From Escherichia virus TH47: 64,000 nt of DNA. The position numbers and the translations under genes are program-made. Shown here one piece after another: positions 1,508 through 62,959 of this stretch (position 1 is the first letter of the stretch; each line of letters opens with the position of its first letter). The notes beneath the pieces are model-generated. The model did no database searches. It was not told where the DNA came from and saw only the letters and a list, made by a program, of their open reading frames with translations. The stretch lies in the sequence record MT446416.1; one strand, 5' to 3'.

Positions 1508-1536
1508 GGAGAGCAAATGCTCTCCTTTTCTTTTTT
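1508..1536. terminator. bidirectional rho-independent terminator
   Basis: perfect stem GGAGAGCA/GCTCTCC with A-run upstream and T-run downstream, between convergent genes. Confidence 0.65.
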
Positions 1537-3823
1537 ACGCAATAACTTTTTCTACTGCTTTAGTTCGTTTAGGTTTGATTGCCAATTTACCATCAATCAC
1601 ATCAAACGTTACGTTACCACCATTAACCAGAGAACCACACAACATCTCTTTAGCTAGTGGGACACGGATGTTTTGCTCAATAGTGCGTTTCATTGGACGT
1701 GCACCCATTCCAACTTTAACACCATTTGTTGCCAACCACTCACGAGCCGCTTTGGTCAGTGAAACTTTAACTTTGCGGTCTTTGATTTGTTCATTCAAAC
1801 TTCCCATGAACTTATCAATGATGCTGTCAATCGCTTCGCTGCTTAGGTCTTTGAATGTCACAATACTATCGATACGGTTGATGAATTCAGGTGGCAAGAA
1901 TGCTTTAATCGCTTTATCTTGTGCTGTATCACTACCGCTCATCCCAATACTACGCTTGGTTGAATCTGCTGCACCAAGGTTAGTCGTCATAATAACAGTT
2001 ACGTTATTGAAGTAAACAGTTTTACCTTGTGAACCAGTCAAACGTCCTTCGTCCAGAACCTGTAGGAAGGTTAGTAGTACTTTACGATCAGCTTTTTCGA
2101 TTTCATCGAGCAACAGTACTGCATTCGGGAACTGCTCAATCTTGTCGAGTAGCAGACCGTTACCAGAATCGTGACCAACATAGCCTGGAGGTGAACCAAT
2201 CAGTTTAGCAACAGTATGTTCCTGTGAAAACTCGGACATATCGAAACGAATCAGTTCAGAACCAGTTGCATCAGCCAGTGCTTTGGTAATTTCAGTTTTA
2301 CCAGTACCAGATGGCCCAACAAACATGAATGCACCTTGAACACTTGATTTATCACGCAGACCAGCACGAGCTACCATCACGTTATCAACCAGTTTCTGTA
2401 CTGCTTCTTCTTGACCGTATACACGAGAACGGAGTGCATCTGGTAGATTACGCATACGTTCACTTTCAGTGCAAGCAACCACGTTAATATCTAGGTTTGC
2501 GATACCTGCAACAACTTCTTGAATCAGTGCAACAGTGATGATGTTATCATCAGTTTCACGAGAACGTACTTTCGCTGCCGCCGCATCCATTAGGTCGATT
2601 GCTTTGTCAGGGAAGTGTTTGTTCTTCAGGAACTTATCACTTAGTGTAATAACTGCATCCATTGCTTCAGTACTGAACTCTACGTTATGGAAAGTTTCAT
2701 AAGTAGATTTCAAACCATTCACAATCGCACGGGTTTCATCAATTGATGGCTCAACTACATCAATTTTCATGAAACGACGAGTTAGTGCACTATCTTTTTC
2801 GATGTTTTTACGATATTCATCGTAAGTTGTTGCACCGATTACACGAATCTCACCACGAGATAGTGCAGGTTTGAGCATGTTGCTCATATCCATAGAACCG
2901 TTGCTTGCTGAACCAGCACCAACCATAATATGGATTTCATCGATGAACACAATAGTGTTTTCACGTTTCTTCAGTTCTTTTAGTAGGTTATCGATACGTT
3001 CTTCGAACTCACCACGGTACTTAGTACCAGCAGTCAGTGCACCTACGTTCAGAGACAGAATTTCAACATCTTTAAGATGCTCTGGTACTTCACCATCAGC
3101 GATTGCCTGTGCTAGACCATCAATGATTTGAGTTTTACCAACACCAGCTTCACCAGTCAGGATGGCATTCTTCTTAGTCTTACGGGCCAGAGTTTCAATC
3201 AGTGCAGAAAGCTCTTTCTGGCGACCAATCATTGGGTCAAGTTTACCTTCTTTTGCAAGTGCTGTTAGGTTAGTGGTGTAATCTTCTAAACCTTTTTGTT
3301 TGGACGATGGTTGCTGTTGTGCCACTTTTTTCTCCCCAGTTGGCTCATCACTAATGCTTTGAAGGTTGATTCCGTTGTCGATTGCTTCTACGTGCTTCTG
3401 TAGAGTTCGTGCTGCTTCAGTACAAGTGATACCCTCTTCACGCAATGCTGCTTCTAGTGCAGTATTTGGGAAGGACAAACACTCAAACAGTACAAAATAA
3501 GCATCAATTGAGAAATCATCACGTTTAAGTTGCTCAATTACTGATTTCTTAGAAAGTTCCTGAACTACACGGTTCACGAGAAGTGATGTGCGGTTCGCTT
3601 CATCACCATCAGCACTTTTAGGTGCATGTGGGAATGTTGTATTCTTCAGATATGCAATCAAACGACCGTGTAGGTTGTCTGCATCGATGTTCATATCTTC
3701 AAATACTGCTTTGATGCTATCGATTGTCAGTACTGTAGCACTTAGATGGTCAATAGTCAAGAAGGTATGACCCAGAGAAGTTGCCAGTTCGTCGCTTTTT
3801 TTGAATAATTGGGTAAGATTCAT
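1535..3823 (-). CDS. ClpA-like two-domain AAA+ unfoldase (Clp ATPase family)
   Basis: Clp N-domain-like N-terminus; two Walker A motifs (GEAGVGKT, GPSGTGKT) and Walker B motifs (VFIDEIH, LLLDEIEKA); start placed at ATG with AGGAGA RBS (ORF track starts at upstream GTG 3847). Confidence 0.9.
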   Translation of the reverse strand: MNLTQLFKKSDELATSLGHTFLTIDHLSATVLTIDSIKAVFEDMNIDADNLHGRLIAYLKNTTFPHAPKSADGDEANRTSLLVNRVVQELSKKSVIEQLKRDDFSIDAYFVLFECLSFPNTALEAALREEGITCTEAARTLQKHVEAIDNGINLQSISDEPTGEKKVAQQQPSSKQKGLEDYTTNLTALAKEGKLDPMIGRQKELSALIETLARKTKKNAILTGEAGVGKTQIIDGLAQAIADGEVPEHLKDVEILSLNVGALTAGTKYRGEFEERIDNLLKELKKRENTIVFIDEIHIMVGAGSASNGSMDMSNMLKPALSRGEIRVIGATTYDEYRKNIEKDSALTRRFMKIDVVEPSIDETRAIVNGLKSTYETFHNVEFSTEAMDAVITLSDKFLKNKHFPDKAIDLMDAAAAKVRSRETDDNIITVALIQEVVAGIANLDINVVACTESERMRNLPDALRSRVYGQEEAVQKLVDNVMVARAGLRDKSSVQGAFMFVGPSGTGKTEITKALADATGSELIRFDMSEFSQEHTVAKLIGSPPGYVGHDSGNGLLLDKIEQFPNAVLLLDEIEKADRKVLLTFLQVLDEGRLTGSQGKTVYFNNVTVIMTTNLGAADSTKRSIGMSGSDTAQDKAIKAFLPPEFINRIDSIVTFKDLSSEAIDSIIDKFMGSLNEQIKDRKVKVSLTKAAREWLATNGVKVGMGARPMKRTIEQNIRVPLAKEMLCGSLVNGGNVTFDVIDGKLAIKPKRTKAVEKVIA

Positions 3824-3861
3824 GTATTCTCCTAAATGAGTAGTCACTCTAATTAATAAAC

Positions 3862-3889
3862 ATTATATCACATTCTTTGCGTTTGTCAA
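3862..3889 (-). promoter_or_regulatory. sigma70 consensus promoter (TTGACA-N16-TGaTATAAT) driving the ClpA-like gene
   Basis: minus-strand reading gives TTGACA, 16-nt spacer, extended -10 TGATATAAT, about 35 nt upstream of the ATG; same 13-nt -10 block as the two copies at 27336-27457. Confidence 0.65.
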
Positions 3890-25835: not shown

Positions 25836-27164
25836 TTAACCAAGAGAGCGTGCTTTACGTACTAGGTCAGAGTACTTCATAACGAAGTCTTTAAACGCTG
25901 GTACATCTTTAATCGTAATCGCTACTTTATGAAGCGTGATGGTACGAATCGCCAGTACTGCCAGTTCTGCTTGAGTTGCAGAGAAGTTATGGTCTAGGAA
26001 GGTGATGAAGTTGTTGCACAGCTTACCCCAATCTTCCACTGGTAGACGTTGTTCTTGCTTCTCATTGTAGAGGTCGATAATTTTGTAAACCAGATTCAGA
26101 GTGATGAAGTAGTTCGCGGAAATATCAAGCGAAGCATCAATCTCTTTAATCTCACCCTGTAGGATGGACATGGTATCTGGTAGTTTAGCTACGTTATCAA
26201 CATACTCGATGTATTCAGTTGCTACGCCTTCACCAACACGACCTGCAATCATCGCACGGAACACTTCTTTATCAATGTTCTTAACTTTCTTCAGATCTTC
26301 GTAGCGTGCTACTGCTTCCCATGAACGTGGAGAAGTACCACCACAGTGAGAAGGATCTTGTGGGCTAAGGGTGTTGAAGTGTTTAGCACCAGTGTTGTTG
26401 ATGAACGCAACAGTTGCTGGGTTCAAACGCTTGCCAATCGCATAATCGTTAATCCAATCTTGATGATAAGGAATCATTTCGATGTGGGTCATACGGTCAC
26501 GCAGTGGTGTAGCTAGAGAGAACGTTACACCGCCATCAGTTTCACGGTTACCTGCTGCGAGAATCAGTGCAGTCTTAGGTAGCTTCATCTCACCAACACA
26601 ACGGTCGAGGATTAGCTGGTAAGACGCTGCCTGTACAATCGGCATTGCAGAGTTGATTTCGTCAAACAGGATAACACCTTTCCAATCATCGGGCAATTTC
26701 AGTACTTTTGGTGCTGCCCACACAACTGCTGTTTCAGCGATGTAATCTTGTGCACTAGCCAGTTCAGATTCAATCAGTTGCTTACCATCCATATCAAGGA
26801 ACACTTTCTCTGGAACTGGAATACCACGAAGGTCACTTGGTTCAATCTGAGACAAACGGAAATCGATAAAGTTAGTGTCTTGGTCGATTAGTTTGGCTTC
26901 AAACGCTGCCAGTTCACGGCGAAGTTGATCGGCATTTTCAGTATCAGCTTCGATTTGTTGTTTCATGAACTCAATTTTTGCCACGTTATCTTTACGCAGT
27001 GGGTAGTTCTCATCAGCGTATTGACGTGCGATAGCAGATTTACCGATACCAGGGCTACCCCAAATCATCAGGCTATCTTGAATCATGTCAGCCAGTGCCA
27101 TTGCTTCTTTAGCTTTCTTAGGAGTCAGTTTTACGTTCAGGATATCGTTGTTTTGAGTAGACAT
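25836..27164 (-). CDS. MoxR/CobS-type AAA+ ATPase (AAA_5 family)
   Basis: Walker A GSPGIGKS, Walker B ILFDEINSA; AAGGAAA RBS. Confidence 0.8.
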   Translation of the reverse strand: MSTQNNDILNVKLTPKKAKEAMALADMIQDSLMIWGSPGIGKSAIARQYADENYPLRKDNVAKIEFMKQQIEADTENADQLRRELAAFEAKLIDQDTNFIDFRLSQIEPSDLRGIPVPEKVFLDMDGKQLIESELASAQDYIAETAVVWAAPKVLKLPDDWKGVILFDEINSAMPIVQAASYQLILDRCVGEMKLPKTALILAAGNRETDGGVTFSLATPLRDRMTHIEMIPYHQDWINDYAIGKRLNPATVAFINNTGAKHFNTLSPQDPSHCGGTSPRSWEAVARYEDLKKVKNIDKEVFRAMIAGRVGEGVATEYIEYVDNVAKLPDTMSILQGEIKEIDASLDISANYFITLNLVYKIIDLYNEKQEQRLPVEDWGKLCNNFITFLDHNFSATQAELAVLAIRTITLHKVAITIKDVPAFKDFVMKYSDLVRKARSLG

Positions 27165-27335: not shown

Positions 27336-27363
27336 ATTATATCACATCGTTCAGGCTTGTCAA
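27336..27363 (-). promoter_or_regulatory. sigma70 consensus promoter, proximal copy (TTGACA-N16-TGaTATAAT)
   Basis: exact -35 and extended -10 with 16-nt spacer and A-rich UP-like tract upstream on the minus strand. Confidence 0.65.
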
Positions 27364-41727: not shown

Positions 41728-42519
41728 TTATCCGATAATCATTCCAAGTGGTTCCCCACCATCTTTATATCGCTTCAACTGTTCTTTTAGTTGTTCTTGT
41801 AATTGGATACCTTCATTTCTTAATGTATCACCATCCATTGAAAATGTCCCTTGCGGTCCAGGCAATGAAGCAAACTTAGCACGGTTACGACCAAGCATAA
41901 TCATTGCTTCAGACAATGCCCAATCACGAAGCCACGGGTAACTTTGCTGACGTTGGAATAACAATGGTTCTGGGATGTTATGATATACATGTAATAATAC
42001 TTCTTCTGTACCACGAATATCACGATCAATAATAAGTTTCTTAGTCATTTGGTTGAATTGGAATATAATTTCACGTCCAAACATACGACCAACCAATTCT
42101 TGAAATTGAAAGCTGAAATCATATGTTGTTAGGTCATATCCACCTGCATTCCTAGCAGACGTCAATAGATATGTATTTGTGAATGCCAATGAGAATGGGT
42201 CTACGCTGTTACCTGACCCAGAACTTAAATAACCATTACCATAACGATAAATCTTTTTAACAATTTCTACTTCTGTTGGTAGCATATATACCGATTGTGA
42301 ATCATAAAATTTCATATTTAAAAATGCTTCTTCTTTAGAAGCAGAACTCCACGCTCTGTAATTTGATACAGCATTATCAATTGCAATTTCTAATTGACCA
42401 TCAGTAATTTCTACCTCAACTGCACCTGCTCCCAACATTTGAGTGATAACATCTTTCAGTTTTTCACGATGATCAAAATTAGGAGCATCTGGGTTTCCAC
42501 CCATATAATTGTAAGACAT
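41728..42519 (-). CDS. hypothetical protein, possible virion protein
   Basis: 263-aa ORF, GAGGTG RBS. Confidence 0.5.
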   Translation of the reverse strand: MSYNYMGGNPDAPNFDHREKLKDVITQMLGAGAVEVEITDGQLEIAIDNAVSNYRAWSSASKEEAFLNMKFYDSQSVYMLPTEVEIVKKIYRYGNGYLSSGSGNSVDPFSLAFTNTYLLTSARNAGGYDLTTYDFSFQFQELVGRMFGREIIFQFNQMTKKLIIDRDIRGTEEVLLHVYHNIPEPLLFQRQQSYPWLRDWALSEAMIMLGRNRAKFASLPGPQGTFSMDGDTLRNEGIQLQEQLKEQLKRYKDGGEPLGMIIG

Positions 42520-42572
42520 AAAAAAAGCACCTCATTAATGTTTATATATACATTATTTAGAGGTGCTAATAC

Positions 42573-58902: not shown

Positions 58903-59514
58903 TTAATTGTGATTATTCAATTTCTTTTGTTCTTTTTTTAGAGCTTTCATATGTCGTCCAAAATCACGGACATGCCATATATGGTCGGTTTCCCATAGTT
59001 CTGTACGTAAACGGCGTTCTTCCAATTCTTCTGGAGTAGGAATTTTAGATTTCTTCTTATCTTTATTGAAAAAATCATTCATATGTTCTTCCAGTAGATT
59101 TCTACCCTTAACTTTTTCCAGGAATTCATCTACTGATTCAGTTTTATTAGAACGAAGACTGTTACAACGTGAACACATTGTGTTGTAATTTGACTCTAAA
59201 TCAGGTCCACCCTTAGATGCTAGTTGGTTATTATCTACTGTCATCAGTACTTCATATAGACCACAAACTGCATAGACATTTAAGTGAGGTTTACCATATA
59301 CCGGATCTGTGCTATGTGAACGCTCAATGCGAACTTCAGTAGCTTCAATGCCACACGCAACGCATTTGCAATTCTTAACGAATGTCAGTACTTTTTGTGG
59401 GAAGTATCGGAAAGTAACACCGTTATATGTATAGCGTTTCATCTGTGTACTTCTTTGATTTAACTCATTAAGAAGTGATAGTTTGGCAACATAGTAGACC
59501 TGATATTTTGACAT
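58903..59514 (-). CDS. HNH-type endonuclease-like protein
   Basis: CxxC...H...N...CxxC arrangement (CVACG, HLNVY, NN, CSRCN); GAGGA RBS. Confidence 0.45.
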   Translation of the reverse strand: MSKYQVYYVAKLSLLNELNQRSTQMKRYTYNGVTFRYFPQKVLTFVKNCKCVACGIEATEVRIERSHSTDPVYGKPHLNVYAVCGLYEVLMTVDNNQLASKGGPDLESNYNTMCSRCNSLRSNKTESVDEFLEKVKGRNLLEEHMNDFFNKDKKKSKIPTPEELEERRLRTELWETDHIWHVRDFGRHMKALKKEQKKLNNHN

Positions 59515-59516
59515 TT

Positions 59517-59831
59517 TTAATCCTCGGATTTAATTTTAACCTTAACATCTTGATTTTGTAAATCACGAATAGTTTTAATTAATGCATCATGTTTTAGTGC
59601 ACAGTCATTGTACATTGCATCCCATTTTGCAAGTACTGCAAGAATTTCAGCACCATCATATCCTCTGAACCCGTTTTTATCGACCATGATCTTACTTGGT
59701 AGTGGTGTGTTTTCATCACAACGTTCAAGTAAGATTTCTTGTTCTACAATTGGCTTAGGTTGATACTTAATTTCTTCAGCACAACCACTAATTAATAGAA
59801 AAGAAATTGCAAATACTAAAGCGTATTTCAT
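59517..59831 (-). CDS. o-spanin (outer-membrane lipoprotein lysis component)
   Basis: signal peptide with lipobox LISGC, short mature protein; start overlaps i-spanin stop. Confidence 0.65.
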   Translation of the reverse strand: MKYALVFAISFLLISGCAEEIKYQPKPIVEQEILLERCDENTPLPSKIMVDKNGFRGYDGAEILAVLAKWDAMYNDCALKHDALIKTIRDLQNQDVKVKIKSED

Positions 59832-60202
59832 TTGAATTTATTCCTCGCTGCAAGGGAATTCTGTTTAAGTTCATTCAGAAGTTTAACGCCATCTTCATCT
59901 AGACATACGTTTTTGTAAACTTCTCTTTCTACTATAATAGGCACTTGTGTCTCGATAACTTTAGCATTATCTTGCATTATCTTTTTGGTTTCGATATAGT
60001 TTTTTGCATTTTCTTGCTGCATCTTAGCGAGTGCAGAATCAACTTTCTTTTCTATTTTTTGGTCAATACTTTCTTTATAACCAGTATAATAAGTATTTGC
60101 TGACCATCCACCATAAACACAACCTGCCATTACTCCTACTACCAAAATTGGTTTCCAATATGGTATTAAAACTTTTGAAACAATAATTTCTAGTACACTC
60201 AT
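59828..60202 (-). CDS. i-spanin (inner-membrane lysis component)
   Basis: N-terminal TM helix ILVVGVMAGCVYGGW followed by coiled-coil-like charged region; AGGAGA RBS. Confidence 0.65.
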   Translation of the reverse strand: MSVLEIIVSKVLIPYWKPILVVGVMAGCVYGGWSANTYYTGYKESIDQKIEKKVDSALAKMQQENAKNYIETKKIMQDNAKVIETQVPIIVEREVYKNVCLDEDGVKLLNELKQNSLAARNKFK

Positions 60203-60255
60203 AATAACATCTCCTATAGTTGGTAATATTATTTAGAGTGTACTATATTATATGT

Positions 60256-60672
60256 TTACAACATTTTTTGAATATGATCTACGAGTTTACATAGCATTGT
60301 ATCATTATCTTCGTACTTTTGATCAACTTCAACTTTGAATTCTTCTTCAAGTTCCATGATCATTTCAATCCAGTCAAGCCAATCGAATTTAAATTTATCT
60401 TCAATTTCCCATTTCTTAAGATGGAAGTTCATTGATACATCTTTCTCTGATGCATTTTTGTCGCGACTTGTAATGAATTTGACAATTGCTTTTTCAACGT
60501 CAGTTAGTTCACGTGTGCGATATTCTGGATCAAGATACCATTCGCCATTATTGATAGCTTCCAACGAAAGTCTAAGTTCATGCATTAGTTTATAACGATC
60601 AGTACTTTTCTGGATGCGGTTAACTTCGCGATTCAGTACACGTAGTGCGTCTTTGATTTGTTCGTTTAGCAT
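60256..60672 (-). CDS. acyl-carrier-protein-like domain protein lacking the carrier serine
   Basis: C-terminus FDWLDWIEMIMELEEEFKVEV...LVDHI aligns with ACP [20 protein letters not shown]...AIDYI but has W in place of S; start at ATG with GAGGA RBS. Confidence 0.4.
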   Translation of the reverse strand: MLNEQIKDALRVLNREVNRIQKSTDRYKLMHELRLSLEAINNGEWYLDPEYRTRELTDVEKAIVKFITSRDKNASEKDVSMNFHLKKWEIEDKFKFDWLDWIEMIMELEEEFKVEVDQKYEDNDTMLCKLVDHIQKML

Positions 60673-60682
60673 AACAATCCTC

Positions 60683-62959
60683 TTATTTTTTACTGTACCA
60701 TTGCATTTCACGGATATCTAATAGTACCTTCGTAGCCAACTTTATGTTTGGTCGCTTCGGTAGATGGGTTTTATGATACGCCACATTTCGGATGTAGTCA
60801 ACCTTTTCGTTGAAATAATCCATAACTTCTTGATACAACCACTTCCCGTTACGAATGTCCATCAACATAGCAGCATCTGGTCGGTGAACTTGGATGATGC
60901 CAGTTTCAAGTGCTTCCTCGGCTGTATTCAGCAGCCTGATTGTATGCATAGCATGTTTGCAATTTCCATGTAATGCGGTTTTTCCATTTCTACGAGTAAT
61001 GAGTGTTCCGTTGGGAACAGAAAAACACACAGTTCTGTAATTAGTAACTGGAATTTTTTCAAGATTTTGTTTCATGTTCATTTTTTCGGTTTTGGGTTTC
61101 ATATTGATATGAATTTGATATATATCAACACTACCAAAATTGGTTTCGTTTGTGTATGGTCCCCATTTTGATGTTTCATAACCACATAGCAATGCTAGTT
61201 TTTGAACATCATCAGCTAATAATGAATTGGTAGTATAATATACAAATGTATCATTGTCATTAACTAAATTTCGTTTTGTTCCATCACCTTGTAACAAACC
61301 TTTCAGAAGGAAATCCATTTTACGTTTTGTTAAATCAAATACCCAATTTGGAATTCGTTTATTATATGAACCATGTCCACAATCATTATATAATGCTTCA
61401 GCTACTTCACTTGGGAATGTATATCTTGATTCGTCATTAGCTTGATAATCTTTCTTTTCTATAATGTATTCATTAAACATTAATTGACCAGATTTTTTGT
61501 ATTTTGATAAAGCACAACGCATACCTTGACTAGTTTTTGACTGGGAAATATATAAAGATTTTACTTTACCATCCCTGAAATTTATGCACCCATCTGAAAT
61601 AAACCATCCCATGAGTTGAAGATAAACTTTGATATCCATGTAGTCAATTGGACTTTTTTTATCTTTGTGTTCTTTAGTTATTGGGGATATTGTATTCAAA
61701 ATTTTATATGTTTCTTTTAATTGTGCTGCTTCTACAAATTTCCAATCAGACATATCTTTTTGTTGATTTCGTGCATAATCCTTAACATACATTCGGTGGT
61801 TAGCAGTCACTAAAGTATCTTGGTGATGACCAGTGAAATGGTATAGATTGCCATTATATAAATTATCAAAACGTTCAGTGTATTTCTGATATTCAACTTT
61901 GTGATTTTTGTCAAAAGTAGCTAATAGATCGTTTTCAGTAATATCATCAAATAACTTCCAACCATCTTTAGTTAAGAATTCAGTATCAAAACTATAACAG
62001 TCATAACCGTGGTGTGATTCAAGAATAGCACGTTTGGCATTACGGTTCTGCTTCCATTTGTGATAACTCTTACGGTTCTCACTATTTTCTTTGTATTCCT
62101 TTTCATTGAATTTTACAATGAGTTCAGGACGAACTTTTAATTCTTCCGAAGTACGTTCTTTATTGAAGTAACGTAGTGAACCATCAGCATTCACTGTACT
62201 TTCATTCGGGTTGATAATTACCCCAAAGATGTTTTCACCGTAATGGATTAGTTCATATCCAGAATTGTAATTCAATAAATTGAAATCACGATCTAATACT
62301 TTGTCAGTACTATAATTATGTACTAAACGTACAAAATGATATTGTTTCAATGCTTGTGTTGAAACTAATTGTAATGAAGTATCACGCATGTATTTTTCGA
62401 AATCAATTTTTGTAGCATTGAATGGGTGAAGATTGGATTTATTCAAACGGTCAACCAAATACTGCGGGAATGTATCATACATCCATGAAAGTACTTCGTC
62501 AACTGGATGTTCTTCTAAAATTTCATTTAGTTTACGTTCAGCAATTCGTTCCTTATCGAGCCATCCGTGGTGATTCGACATACGCTTAACCTGATTGTAT
62601 GCATAACCACTGTATGAATGAGCAATCTTTGAACTCAATAATTGCTGATTGAATGAGCGTAGATAGTCATAGATTTCAGTACTTTCTACGATGTGTTCCG
62701 GTTTAACCCATAGTGATTCAAGAATGTTTGGGTTAGCTTCTGTATAAAGACTTAAGTACTGATTGACTTCATAAAATTTAGTATCTTCTTCAGAAGGATC
62801 TGAAACTTCCTTAACATTAAAAAAAGGAGTTAGGATAAATTCTTTGTTTGCAAGGAAGATACCACGATAATCGGTATCACTTTCTGGTGTGCTTGTGCCA
62901 TACGCCTGTGAACCCGCTAAGTGTTTAACAATTGTTTGTTCTAGAAAATTGTTTTTCAT
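60683..62959 (-). CDS. Pol-beta-superfamily nucleotidyltransferase-fold protein interrupted by a probable intein
   Basis: N-terminal HLAGSQAYGTSTPESDTDYRGIF (GS...DxD NTase motif); in-frame 346-aa insert with Hint and LAGLIDADG blocks. Confidence 0.55.
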   Translation of the reverse strand: MKNNFLEQTIVKHLAGSQAYGTSTPESDTDYRGIFLANKEFILTPFFNVKEVSDPSEEDTKFYEVNQYLSLYTEANPNILESLWVKPEHIVESTEIYDYLRSFNQQLLSSKIAHSYSGYAYNQVKRMSNHHGWLDKERIAERKLNEILEEHPVDEVLSWMYDTFPQYLVDRLNKSNLHPFNATKIDFEKYMRDTSLQLVSTQALKQYHFVRLVHNYSTDKVLDRDFNLLNYNSGYELIHYGENIFGVIINPNESTVNADGSLRYFNKERTSEELKVRPELIVKFNEKEYKENSENRKSYHKWKQNRNAKRAILESHHGYDCYSFDTEFLTKDGWKLFDDITENDLLATFDKNHKVEYQKYTERFDNLYNGNLYHFTGHHQDTLVTANHRMYVKDYARNQQKDMSDWKFVEAAQLKETYKILNTISPITKEHKDKKSPIDYMDIKVYLQLMGWFISDGCINFRDGKVKSLYISQSKTSQGMRCALSKYKKSGQLMFNEYIIEKKDYQANDESRYTFPSEVAEALYNDCGHGSYNKRIPNWVFDLTKRKMDFLLKGLLQGDGTKRNLVNDNDTFVYYTTNSLLADDVQKLALLCGYETSKWGPYTNETNFGSVDIYQIHINMKPKTEKMNMKQNLEKIPVTNYRTVCFSVPNGTLITRRNGKTALHGNCKHAMHTIRLLNTAEEALETGIIQVHRPDAAMLMDIRNGKWLYQEVMDYFNEKVDYIRNVAYHKTHLPKRPNIKLATKVLLDIREMQWYSKK
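60962..61999 (-). mobile_element. probable intein with LAGLIDADG homing-endonuclease domain
   Basis: block A CYSFDTEFLTKDGWKLFDDI, block B LVTANHRMYV, two LAGLIDADG-like motifs LMGWFISDG and LLKGLLQGDG, C-terminal NGKTALHGN followed by Cys. Confidence 0.5.

Follow-up and report, generated by a model that had tools for sequence, protein, structure and literature searches.

Acyl carrier proteins (ACPs) all dock onto basic patches of partner proteins through the acidic face of their helix II. The serine to which phosphopantetheine is attached is normally the most conserved residue of ACP, which is among the most connected of bacterial proteins. Therisod and Kennedy reportedly found that apo-ACP supports the synthesis of membrane-derived oligosaccharides. 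Here we describe an ACP-like protein encoded on the minus strand of Escherichia virus TH47 (sequence record MT446416.1), at positions 60256-60672 of the 64,000-nucleotide stretch that was analysed (hereafter, the window). Tryptophan occupies the position of the attachment serine in this protein, which probably acts by binding to another protein.

By analogy, the closest functional precedent for cofactor-independent binding would be the mitochondrial ACP (mACP) of Plasmodium falciparum, an obligate binding subunit of Isd11-Nfs1 in which Phe113 replaces the serine, Isd11 is bound without cofactor, and the F113A substitution breaks this binding (PMC8547962). Both proteins appear to have kept the ACP fold after loss of the carrier function, with a bulky aromatic residue in place of the serine (Phe113, and Trp98 in the phage) and an acidic helix II. 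However, the Plasmodium aromatic is fixed and needed, whereas the serine site of the phage family is variable and its fixed aromatic is Trp101, three residues further on (+3). Moreover, AcpS and fatty-acid synthesis are retained in the host of the phage, an extra domain is present in the phage protein, and the Plasmodium partner Isd11 carries a LYR motif, whereas the N-terminal hairpin of the phage protein has no Complex1_LYR match. The moonlighting of E. coli AcpP on MukB (9gm6) and IscS (PMC13343975) provides a further precedent for surface-based action, but these are extra roles of a bona fide carrier.

Compared with type II AcpP (PF00550, TIGR00517), the phage protein shares the acidic recognition helix II and an acidic domain, and PF00550 still recognises its syntenic orthologues from related phages. 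It differs in having Trp for Ser, in scoring far under the curated thresholds, in a loop I about 10 residues longer with extra short helices, in a 55-residue N-terminal hairpin absent from free-standing ACPs, and in that no partner enzymes are encoded near the gene. The ACPs of Eneladusvirus, Serratia phage BF and Yersinia phage fHe-Yen9-03 (PMC7760394) are the same orthologue, with the same two-domain architecture and a spanin-adjacent position, but unlike the window protein they keep DSLD and PF00550. Our literature searches returned no description of a Ser-less phage ACP or of Ser loss in this family, and the paper on phage fEgEco12 does not discuss its "D-alanyl carrier protein" annotation. 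Thus, the ACP annotation, the discussion of the Eneladusvirus proteins and the existence of cofactor-independent ACPs were known, and what appears to be new is the loss and hypervariability of the serine site in a conserved phage family.

The protein has an ACP fold preceded by a helical hairpin

The coding sequence and its two domains are as follows.

60256-60672, minus strand: coding sequence of the two-domain ACP-like protein, 138 residues, stop codon included (supported by the open reading frame and its sequence, the identical protein P0001, PHROG 18343 and dN/dS)
60508-60672, minus strand: N-terminal domain, residues 1-55, a hairpin of two antiparallel helices (2-19 and 25-41) that includes the family motif S-T-D-R-Y at residues 23-27
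60259-60507, minus strand: ACP-fold domain, residues 56-138 (sequence and profile matches, structural model)

The C-terminal domain has the four-helix ACP fold. A phmmer search against PDB sequences gave 71 matches, and 59 of the 60 among the matches listed were ACPs (best E=0.0046); all seven NCBIfam matches were likewise to models of ACPs (best E=5e-5). The match to PHROG 5934 ("acyl carrier protein") had E=2.3e-7, and BLASTP aligned the protein with E. coli AcpP at E=3e-7, while hhalign of the family profile against AcpP gave a probability of 92.9% across AcpP residues 5-74. An AlphaFold2 model built with 13 homologues reached a mean pLDDT (predicted local distance difference test) of 85.5. 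Helix I spans residues 58-70 and is followed by the long loop I, helix II (98-112), helix III (118-121) and helix IV (127-137). The domain is acidic, with an isoelectric point of 4.67 compared to 4.05 for E. coli AcpP, and its structural matches include complexes of AcpP with FabH, FabD, FabZ, LpxD, AcpS and MukB (9gm6).

All of these searches, together with the model, bear out the four-helix fold proposed in an earlier note made from the sequence alone. That note had confined the ACP likeness to the C-terminal 45 residues; the likeness is real, but the domain covers approximately residues 56-138, including helix I and loop I. The match to known ACPs is nonetheless distant: among the NCBIfam ACP models, whose cut-offs lie at about 70-71 bits, the top score was 23 bits where 71 are required, PP-binding_2 (PF14573) was reached only below threshold (14.3 bits against a cut-off of 32), and the Pfam scan gave no match to PF00550.

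The family to which the protein belongs is PHROG 18343 (function unknown), matched over residues 2-138 at E=1.6e-42. The protein shows a full-length match to it, the hairpin motif S/T-x-D/E-R-Y/F (STDRY here), the C-terminal ACP domain and a spanin pair encoded directly downstream. The hairpin gave no match to Complex1_LYR or to any other Pfam family at E<=1, and a LYR-like identity for it was rejected given this result and its motif, which is D-R-Y and not L-Y-R.

Tryptophan replaces the attachment serine in a conserved helix II

The elements of the recognition helix are listed below.

60379-60381, minus strand: codon TGG for Trp98, at the position of the phosphopantetheine-attachment Ser (alignments)
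60370-60372, minus strand: codon TGG for Trp101, at the position of AcpP T39, invariant in the clade with a variable Ser site
60337-60384, minus strand: recognition helix II block D97-F112 (DWLDWIEMIMELEEEF), corresponding to AcpP D35-F50 (alignments)

In every alignment (phmmer, BLASTP and hhalign), Trp98 was placed opposite the serine of the DSL motif that carries the modification (Ser36 in E. coli AcpP), as the earlier note had proposed. Since Trp98 takes the place of this residue, the protein of this phage, as judged from its sequence, cannot be phosphopantetheinylated or acylated, that is, it cannot carry phosphopantetheine or an acyl chain. The claim of that note that the protein escapes acylation is upheld on the same grounds.

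The surroundings of the lost serine are well preserved. The acidic residues D97, D100, E103, E109 and E110 of helix II correspond to AcpP D35, D38, E41, E47 and E48, and 10 of the 20 residues of AcpP D35-I54 are identical in the phage protein. D97 is the same in all 20 family representatives, and conservation reaches 90% or more at D100, E103, M106, E109 and F112. In E. coli, D35, E41 and E47/E48 of AcpP are ion-pair residues required by AcpS, and the mutation or neutralisation of D35, E41 or E47/E48 abolishes modification by AcpS in vivo (bioRxiv 10.1101/2025.01.28.635281). Because these helix II acidic residues are conserved, it is plausible that the phage protein could dock onto an ACP-type partner.

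The serine site is hypervariable in one clade of a conserved family

The 5 kb surrounding the gene match the genus Asteriusvirus, that is, Escherichia jumbo phages of the 121Q/PBECO4 type (350-385 kb); over this segment the closest genomes are WPEC5, vB_Ec-M-J, EC.P1 and fEgEco12, at 98% identity. A protein 100% identical to the window protein (P0001) is encoded on a 352,450-bp NCBI contig. By tblastn, a single copy of the gene was detected in each of 50 phage records, with the open reading frame intact in all 50. These comprise all Asteriusvirus genomes of Escherichia and Salmonella (58-91% identity; 38% for JNE01 and Turkey5), the Klebsiella Alcyoneusvirus phages RaK2, K64-1 and Muenster (29%), and six Caulobacter phages in which the match is limited to the ACP domain. 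A profile search of 1.84 billion representatives and a word-indexed search added further diverged two-domain relatives, among them the ACP of fHe-Yen9-03, recorded with a PF00550 match; single-protein scans of IMG/VR with the relatives P0017, P0036 and P0019 produced no relatives.

The residue at the serine site differs widely between these proteins. Trp is found in the clade of the window, in 121Q and in SD-2_S15; Ser in A4, which is 71% identical to the window protein, in ph0011, in P0008-P0011 and in P0017; Thr in P0007 and in RaK2/Muenster; Asn in JNE01; Arg in P0013; Glu in P0015; Asp in P0019, P0020 and P0027; and Lys in P0023. The expectation in the earlier note that relatives would not retain the Ser therefore holds only in part: A4, ph0011, fHe-Yen9-03 and others have DSLD, and the remaining members just listed do not. 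The distribution is ordered, however, by the residue at +3. Motif-bearing members without Trp at +3 (P0036, the P0051/P0073 group and the fHe-Yen9-03 group) all keep the Ser, as LDSLD(I/T/E), so that among members with the N-terminal family motif the losses of Ser are confined to the clade with an invariant Trp at +3 (D-x-L-D-W). Within this clade (n=16 sequences), eight residue types (S, W, D, T, N, R, E and K) occur at the Ser site, with an entropy of 2.78 bits that ranks third among the 138 positions, whereas the flanking D97 and W101 show zero entropy.

The similarity to canonical ACPs declines across the family. The fHe-Yen9-03 orthologue, with LDSLDE, scores 55 bits on TIGR00517, and NCBIfam ACP scores fall from these 55 bits (Ser) to 31 for A4-type proteins (Ser), 23 for the window protein (Trp) and 12 for RaK2 (Thr). 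The gene order of fHe-Yen9-03 also matches that of the window (RlaP ... ACP-like gene, ~120-residue gene, ~104-residue gene). These comparisons indicate that the window protein is descended from a genuine Ser-bearing carrier, encoded at the same locus in related jumbo phages.

As the Ser site varies between loadable and non-loadable residues, the function of the family is seemingly indifferent to loadability. Such indifference fits a cofactor-independent binding protein, and it does not single out a decoy that escapes acylation.

Most records of the gene in relatives name a "hypothetical protein". Others read "acyl carrier protein" (vB_Ec-M-J, phAPEC6), "acpP" (Sharanji), "D-alanyl carrier protein 1" (fEgEco12) or "carrier domain-containing protein" (ph0011). 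Because the Ser is not retained, carrier annotations are misleading for the window protein and for most Asteriusvirus and Alcyoneusvirus orthologues. One structure-database entry (BFVD A0A2Z5HFQ2) is 89% identical over 137 columns, but its 432 residues far exceed the orthologue lengths, and it is possibly a mis-called fused open reading frame.

The gene is under purifying selection and its two halves probably have different histories

The ratio of nonsynonymous to synonymous divergence (dN/dS) was estimated pairwise by the Nei-Gojobori method. Pairwise values ranged from 0.16 to 0.45, and those of the window gene against orthologues lay at about 0.2-0.3; for the comparison with 121Q, in which both proteins bear the Trp, dN/dS was 0.20 at a synonymous divergence (dS) of 0.82, and 0.19 in the segment of helices II-IV. 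The gene is therefore under purifying selection and is not decaying. The Trp98 allele resembles the Plasmodium case in this respect, with the Ser replaced by a non-modifiable residue while the fold and the acidic helix II are under selection.

These values bear on the explanation that the protein is a decaying relic of a carrier, without function in this phage. The loss of the defining Ser and scores under every curated ACP threshold would fit such a relic, but a dN/dS of about 0.2 between Trp-bearing lineages at a dS of about 0.8 largely refutes a pseudogene, and the invariant motifs of both domains and the intact frame in all 50 phage records argue in the same direction. We consider this explanation extremely improbable.

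When the gene was divided in halves, the N-terminal half of the window gene was nearest to A4 (dS 0.28, compared to 1.29 for 121Q), and in this half only 121Q grouped with ph0011 (dS 0.28). The C-terminal half was instead nearest to 121Q (dS 0.65, compared to 1.88 for A4). These segment values rest on small counts, of 8-20 synonymous differences per segment. The incongruence between halves leads us to the view that the Trp-bearing ACP module has moved between backgrounds, and hence that the Trp98 allele has probably been exchanged between lineages by intragenic recombination.

The gene appears to form a unit separate from the downstream spanin genes

The following features flank the gene.

60678-60684, minus strand: ribosome-binding site AAGAGGA, 5 nt 5' of the ATG, overlapping the stop codon of the RlaP-type nucleotidyltransferase gene (sequence)
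60226-60238, minus strand: non-coding motif CTCTAAATAATAT, conserved between loci and situated after the end of the ACP-like gene and before the ribosome-binding site of the i-spanin gene (comparison of loci)
59517-60202, minus strand: spanin pair, as context, with the i-spanin at 59828-60202 (N-terminal transmembrane helix) and the o-spanin at 59517-59831 (lipobox LISGC); LysC/Rz1-like, E=0.011

The open reading frame runs on the minus strand from the ATG at 60670-60672 to the TAA at 60256-60258. This start is the better one, as AAGAGGA lies at 60678-60684 and every homologue begins with MLN, and the coordinates in the earlier note, 60256-60672, are accordingly correct. A longer frame in the mechanical list of open reading frames, starting with GTG at 60711 (151 residues), was rejected: it has no ribosome-binding site, it overlaps the upstream gene, and the homologues lack the extension.

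The genomic context was compared in the window and 15 other loci, representing about nine lineages and reaching down to ~20% identity. In 16 of 16 loci two overlapping genes come immediately after the ACP-like gene: the first (about 120 residues) encodes a protein with a transmembrane helix at its N-terminus and the second (about 104 residues) a lipoprotein. In phage Muenster this pair is annotated as i-spanin and o-spanin. The gene upstream varies (RlaP-type nucleotidyltransferase, tail fibre or small unknown genes), and the nearest lysozyme gene lies about 10 kb away.

This constant adjacency, remarked on for the ACPs of Eneladusvirus phages (PMC7760394), would be expected if the protein were a lysis-module accessory that works with the downstream spanins, for instance in the timing or support of spanin production or of lipoprotein maturation; that the pair is retained while the upstream neighbour varies, and while an HNH gene is sometimes absent, favours the same idea. 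However, the two units look transcriptionally separate, since terminators and a conserved motif lie between them. An intrinsic terminator was found directly 3' of the ACP-like gene in loci L009, L013 and L016, and the promoter-like motif C(T/C)CTAAATA is present in most lineages. It is kept in Asteriusvirus, in RaK2/Muenster and in the metagenomic loci L014-L016 (also in L002-L008), between which the proteins are only ~30% identical, and it sits about 25-30 nt 5' of the i-spanin start codon. An identical 9-mer occurs 35 nt 5' of the open reading frame 41728-42519, at ~42546-42554 on the minus strand. The motif CTCTAAATAATAT is probably a phage-specific (late?) promoter element for the spanin genes, and CTCTAAATA may mark the start of a separate spanin transcript.

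Three further points speak against an accessory role in lysis. The ACP-like protein lacks a signal peptide and should, by prediction, be a soluble protein of the cytoplasm, whereas spanins act through their periplasmic portions. In the pathway of Lgt, Lsp and Lnt, lipoproteins are acylated from phospholipid donors, not from acyl-ACP. Finally, the downstream genes for DUF7325, DUF5856 and thymidine kinase are also collinear, so the adjacency may be inherited gene order. Altogether, a role in lysis seems improbable.

The signals upstream of the gene suggest when it is expressed. In 121Q, JNE01 and SD-2_S15 a sigma-70 promoter matching the consensus at 12 of 12 positions (TTGACA-N16/17-TATAAT) lies ~45 nt 5' of the ATG, and near-consensus copies occupy the equivalent spot in ph0011 and A4. 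The presence of these promoters suggests that in the relatives bearing them, those of the 121Q type, the gene is expressed early by host RNA polymerase.

In 121Q (L002, 2927-2990), 2 nt separate the end of the 12/12 promoter (TTGACA-17-TATAAT) from a 10-bp hairpin with a run of T, at which transcripts of the tail-fibre gene upstream would terminate. These sequences recur in L003, L005, L006 and L007. The terminator/promoter cassette resembles the early-promoter stem-loop cassettes of T4-type phages, and its position is that at which the phages diverge in their upstream gene.

The arrangement of 121Q also bears on whether the protein belongs to the virion, either packaged and injected or acting as a tail-fibre chaperone. 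In 121Q-type genomes the gene directly follows a tail-fibre gene, and liquid chromatography-tandem mass spectrometry of Erwinia Eneladusvirus particles identified 89 proteins, one of them named "acyl carrier protein" (PMC7760394). On the other hand, the orthologue gp313c is missing from the table of 62 virion proteins of phAPEC6, in which its neighbours gp314c and gp315c are present, the 121Q annotation is hypothetical and not structural, and a terminator separates the tail-fibre gene from the ACP-like gene, which has its own sigma-70-type promoter. A virion or assembly function is thus very improbable.

A cofactor-independent protein binder as the favoured explanation

With a confidence a little above even, we propose that the protein is a cofactor-independent, stoichiometric protein binder with an ACP fold, descended from a Ser-bearing carrier, with a host partner of AcpP as its likeliest target. 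The invariant Trp would have arisen first, a single helical turn beyond the attachment site (D-x-L-D-W); selection on the attachment Ser would then have ceased, leaving Trp98 in this phage. What selection keeps is the acidic face of helix II, the aromatic patch at its start and the N-terminal helical hairpin. Helix II and the Trp patch may then dock onto the partner, to which the protein would bind stoichiometrically, and the hairpin may mediate dimerisation or make a further contact. The most likely partner is a host protein whose usual ligand is AcpP, in which case the phage protein would be a competitor or modulator early in infection, although a phage-encoded partner is nearly as likely. 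Action through protein binding is the most likely mode from sequence comparison, from which the identity of the partner and the timing are likewise inferred.

The neighbourhood of the gene offers little for a carrier to work with. No lipid, adenylation or acyltransferase gene was found in the ~60 kb of annotated neighbourhood, and tblastn with E. coli AcpS at E<=1 against all phage records detected no AcpS-like gene in Asteriusvirus, Alcyoneusvirus or other Enterobacterales jumbo phages, although an Sfp-type enzyme could escape such a search.

Several observations weigh against the proposed binder. In Ser-bearing sister phages the complete DSLD could be loaded by host AcpS, so a carrier role is possible there. 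Variability at a surface site is also expected from neutral drift, and hence is no proof of a role for Trp98. In the window, the ACP-like gene follows the RlaP gene with a gap of 10 nt, and a consensus sigma-70 promoter was sought and rejected, as the best site matches at 10 of 12 positions, lies inside the RlaP gene and is not above the shuffled expectation; the early timing is therefore extrapolated from relatives.

A stricter alternative takes up the ACP mimic suggested in the earlier note, which had named host lipid or lipid A synthesis or an ACP-dependent defence as possible targets. In this view the protein would be a mimic or inhibitor, which blocks the ACP site of AcpS, FabH/FabD or LpxA/LpxD, or of the clients IscS, MukB, SpoT or OpgH, and thereby shuts down host lipid or lipopolysaccharide synthesis or another AcpP-dependent process. 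The conserved equivalents of AcpP D35, D38, E41, E47 and E48, the impossibility of loading at Trp98 and the host-type consensus promoter of relatives, which suggests early expression, all fit this idea, as does the number of clients that use the AcpP surface, evident from the structural matches with FabH, FabD, FabZ, LpxD, AcpS and MukB; the AcpP-IscS interaction of E. coli is also documented (PMC13343975). What weakens it is that relatives 71% identical hold a loadable Ser, so that escape from acylation is not required. In addition, the domain is no nearer to enterobacterial AcpP than to other ACPs (E-values are similar across the taxa in the PDB), loop I is far longer than that of AcpP, and steric conflict with enzyme clefts could arise from the added hairpin. 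Such a mimic is possible but, in our view, unlikely. Rather unlikely, too, is the more specific scenario in which phages of the RaK2/121Q type deploy an early, non-loadable ACP look-alike that rewires or blocks a host AcpP client (such as AcpS, LpxA/LpxD, IscS, MukB or SpoT), with the hypervariable former Ser site, in the middle of the docking interface, recording an arms race or tuning to the host.

Other features of the region

Perfect TTGACA-N16-TATAAT sites occur only three times in the window, at 27363, 27457 and 3889, all on the minus strand, and they share the extended form TGTGATATAAT. The sites at 27363 and 27457 lie in tandem 5' of a gene for 442 residues (25836-27164; annotated as an ATPase in vB_Ec-M-J), and that at 3889 lies 5' of 1535-3847. 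All three are likely to be strong early promoters.

The RlaP-type gene upstream of the ACP-like gene (open reading frame 60683-62959, minus strand) holds a 346-residue intein at 60962-61999, between D320 and C321. The intein begins with Cys (CYSFD...), ends in ...HGN followed by the +1 Cys, and has a LAGLIDADG_3 match (3e-5). The exteins are identical at 319 of 320 and 91 of 92 residues to the uninterrupted 412-residue protein of vB_Ec-M-J, and the insertion is absent from the RlaP genes of all eight phage genomes that are 98% identical.

Directly after the spanin pair, in most lineages, comes an HNH endonuclease gene (58903-59514, minus strand, with weak HNH_5/HNH matches). It is probably mobile, or an optional insertion into a block that is otherwise collinear, as it is missing from the metagenomic locus L013.

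Significance

In several Asteriusvirus genome records, names such as "acyl carrier protein", "acpP" or "D-alanyl carrier protein" misdescribe the function of the alleles with Trp, Thr, Asn or Arg. The family constitutes a natural experiment in which the docking surface of ACP, kept by purifying selection, is separated from the cargo. With a host client of AcpP as its partner, the protein would represent a new kind of host-takeover factor, and could provide a tool or lead for blocking the lipid A, fatty acid, iron-sulfur cluster or MukBEF pathways. Should these phages indeed use a non-loadable look-alike to rewire such a client, it would be the first viral ACP mimic and would define a new class of host takeover.

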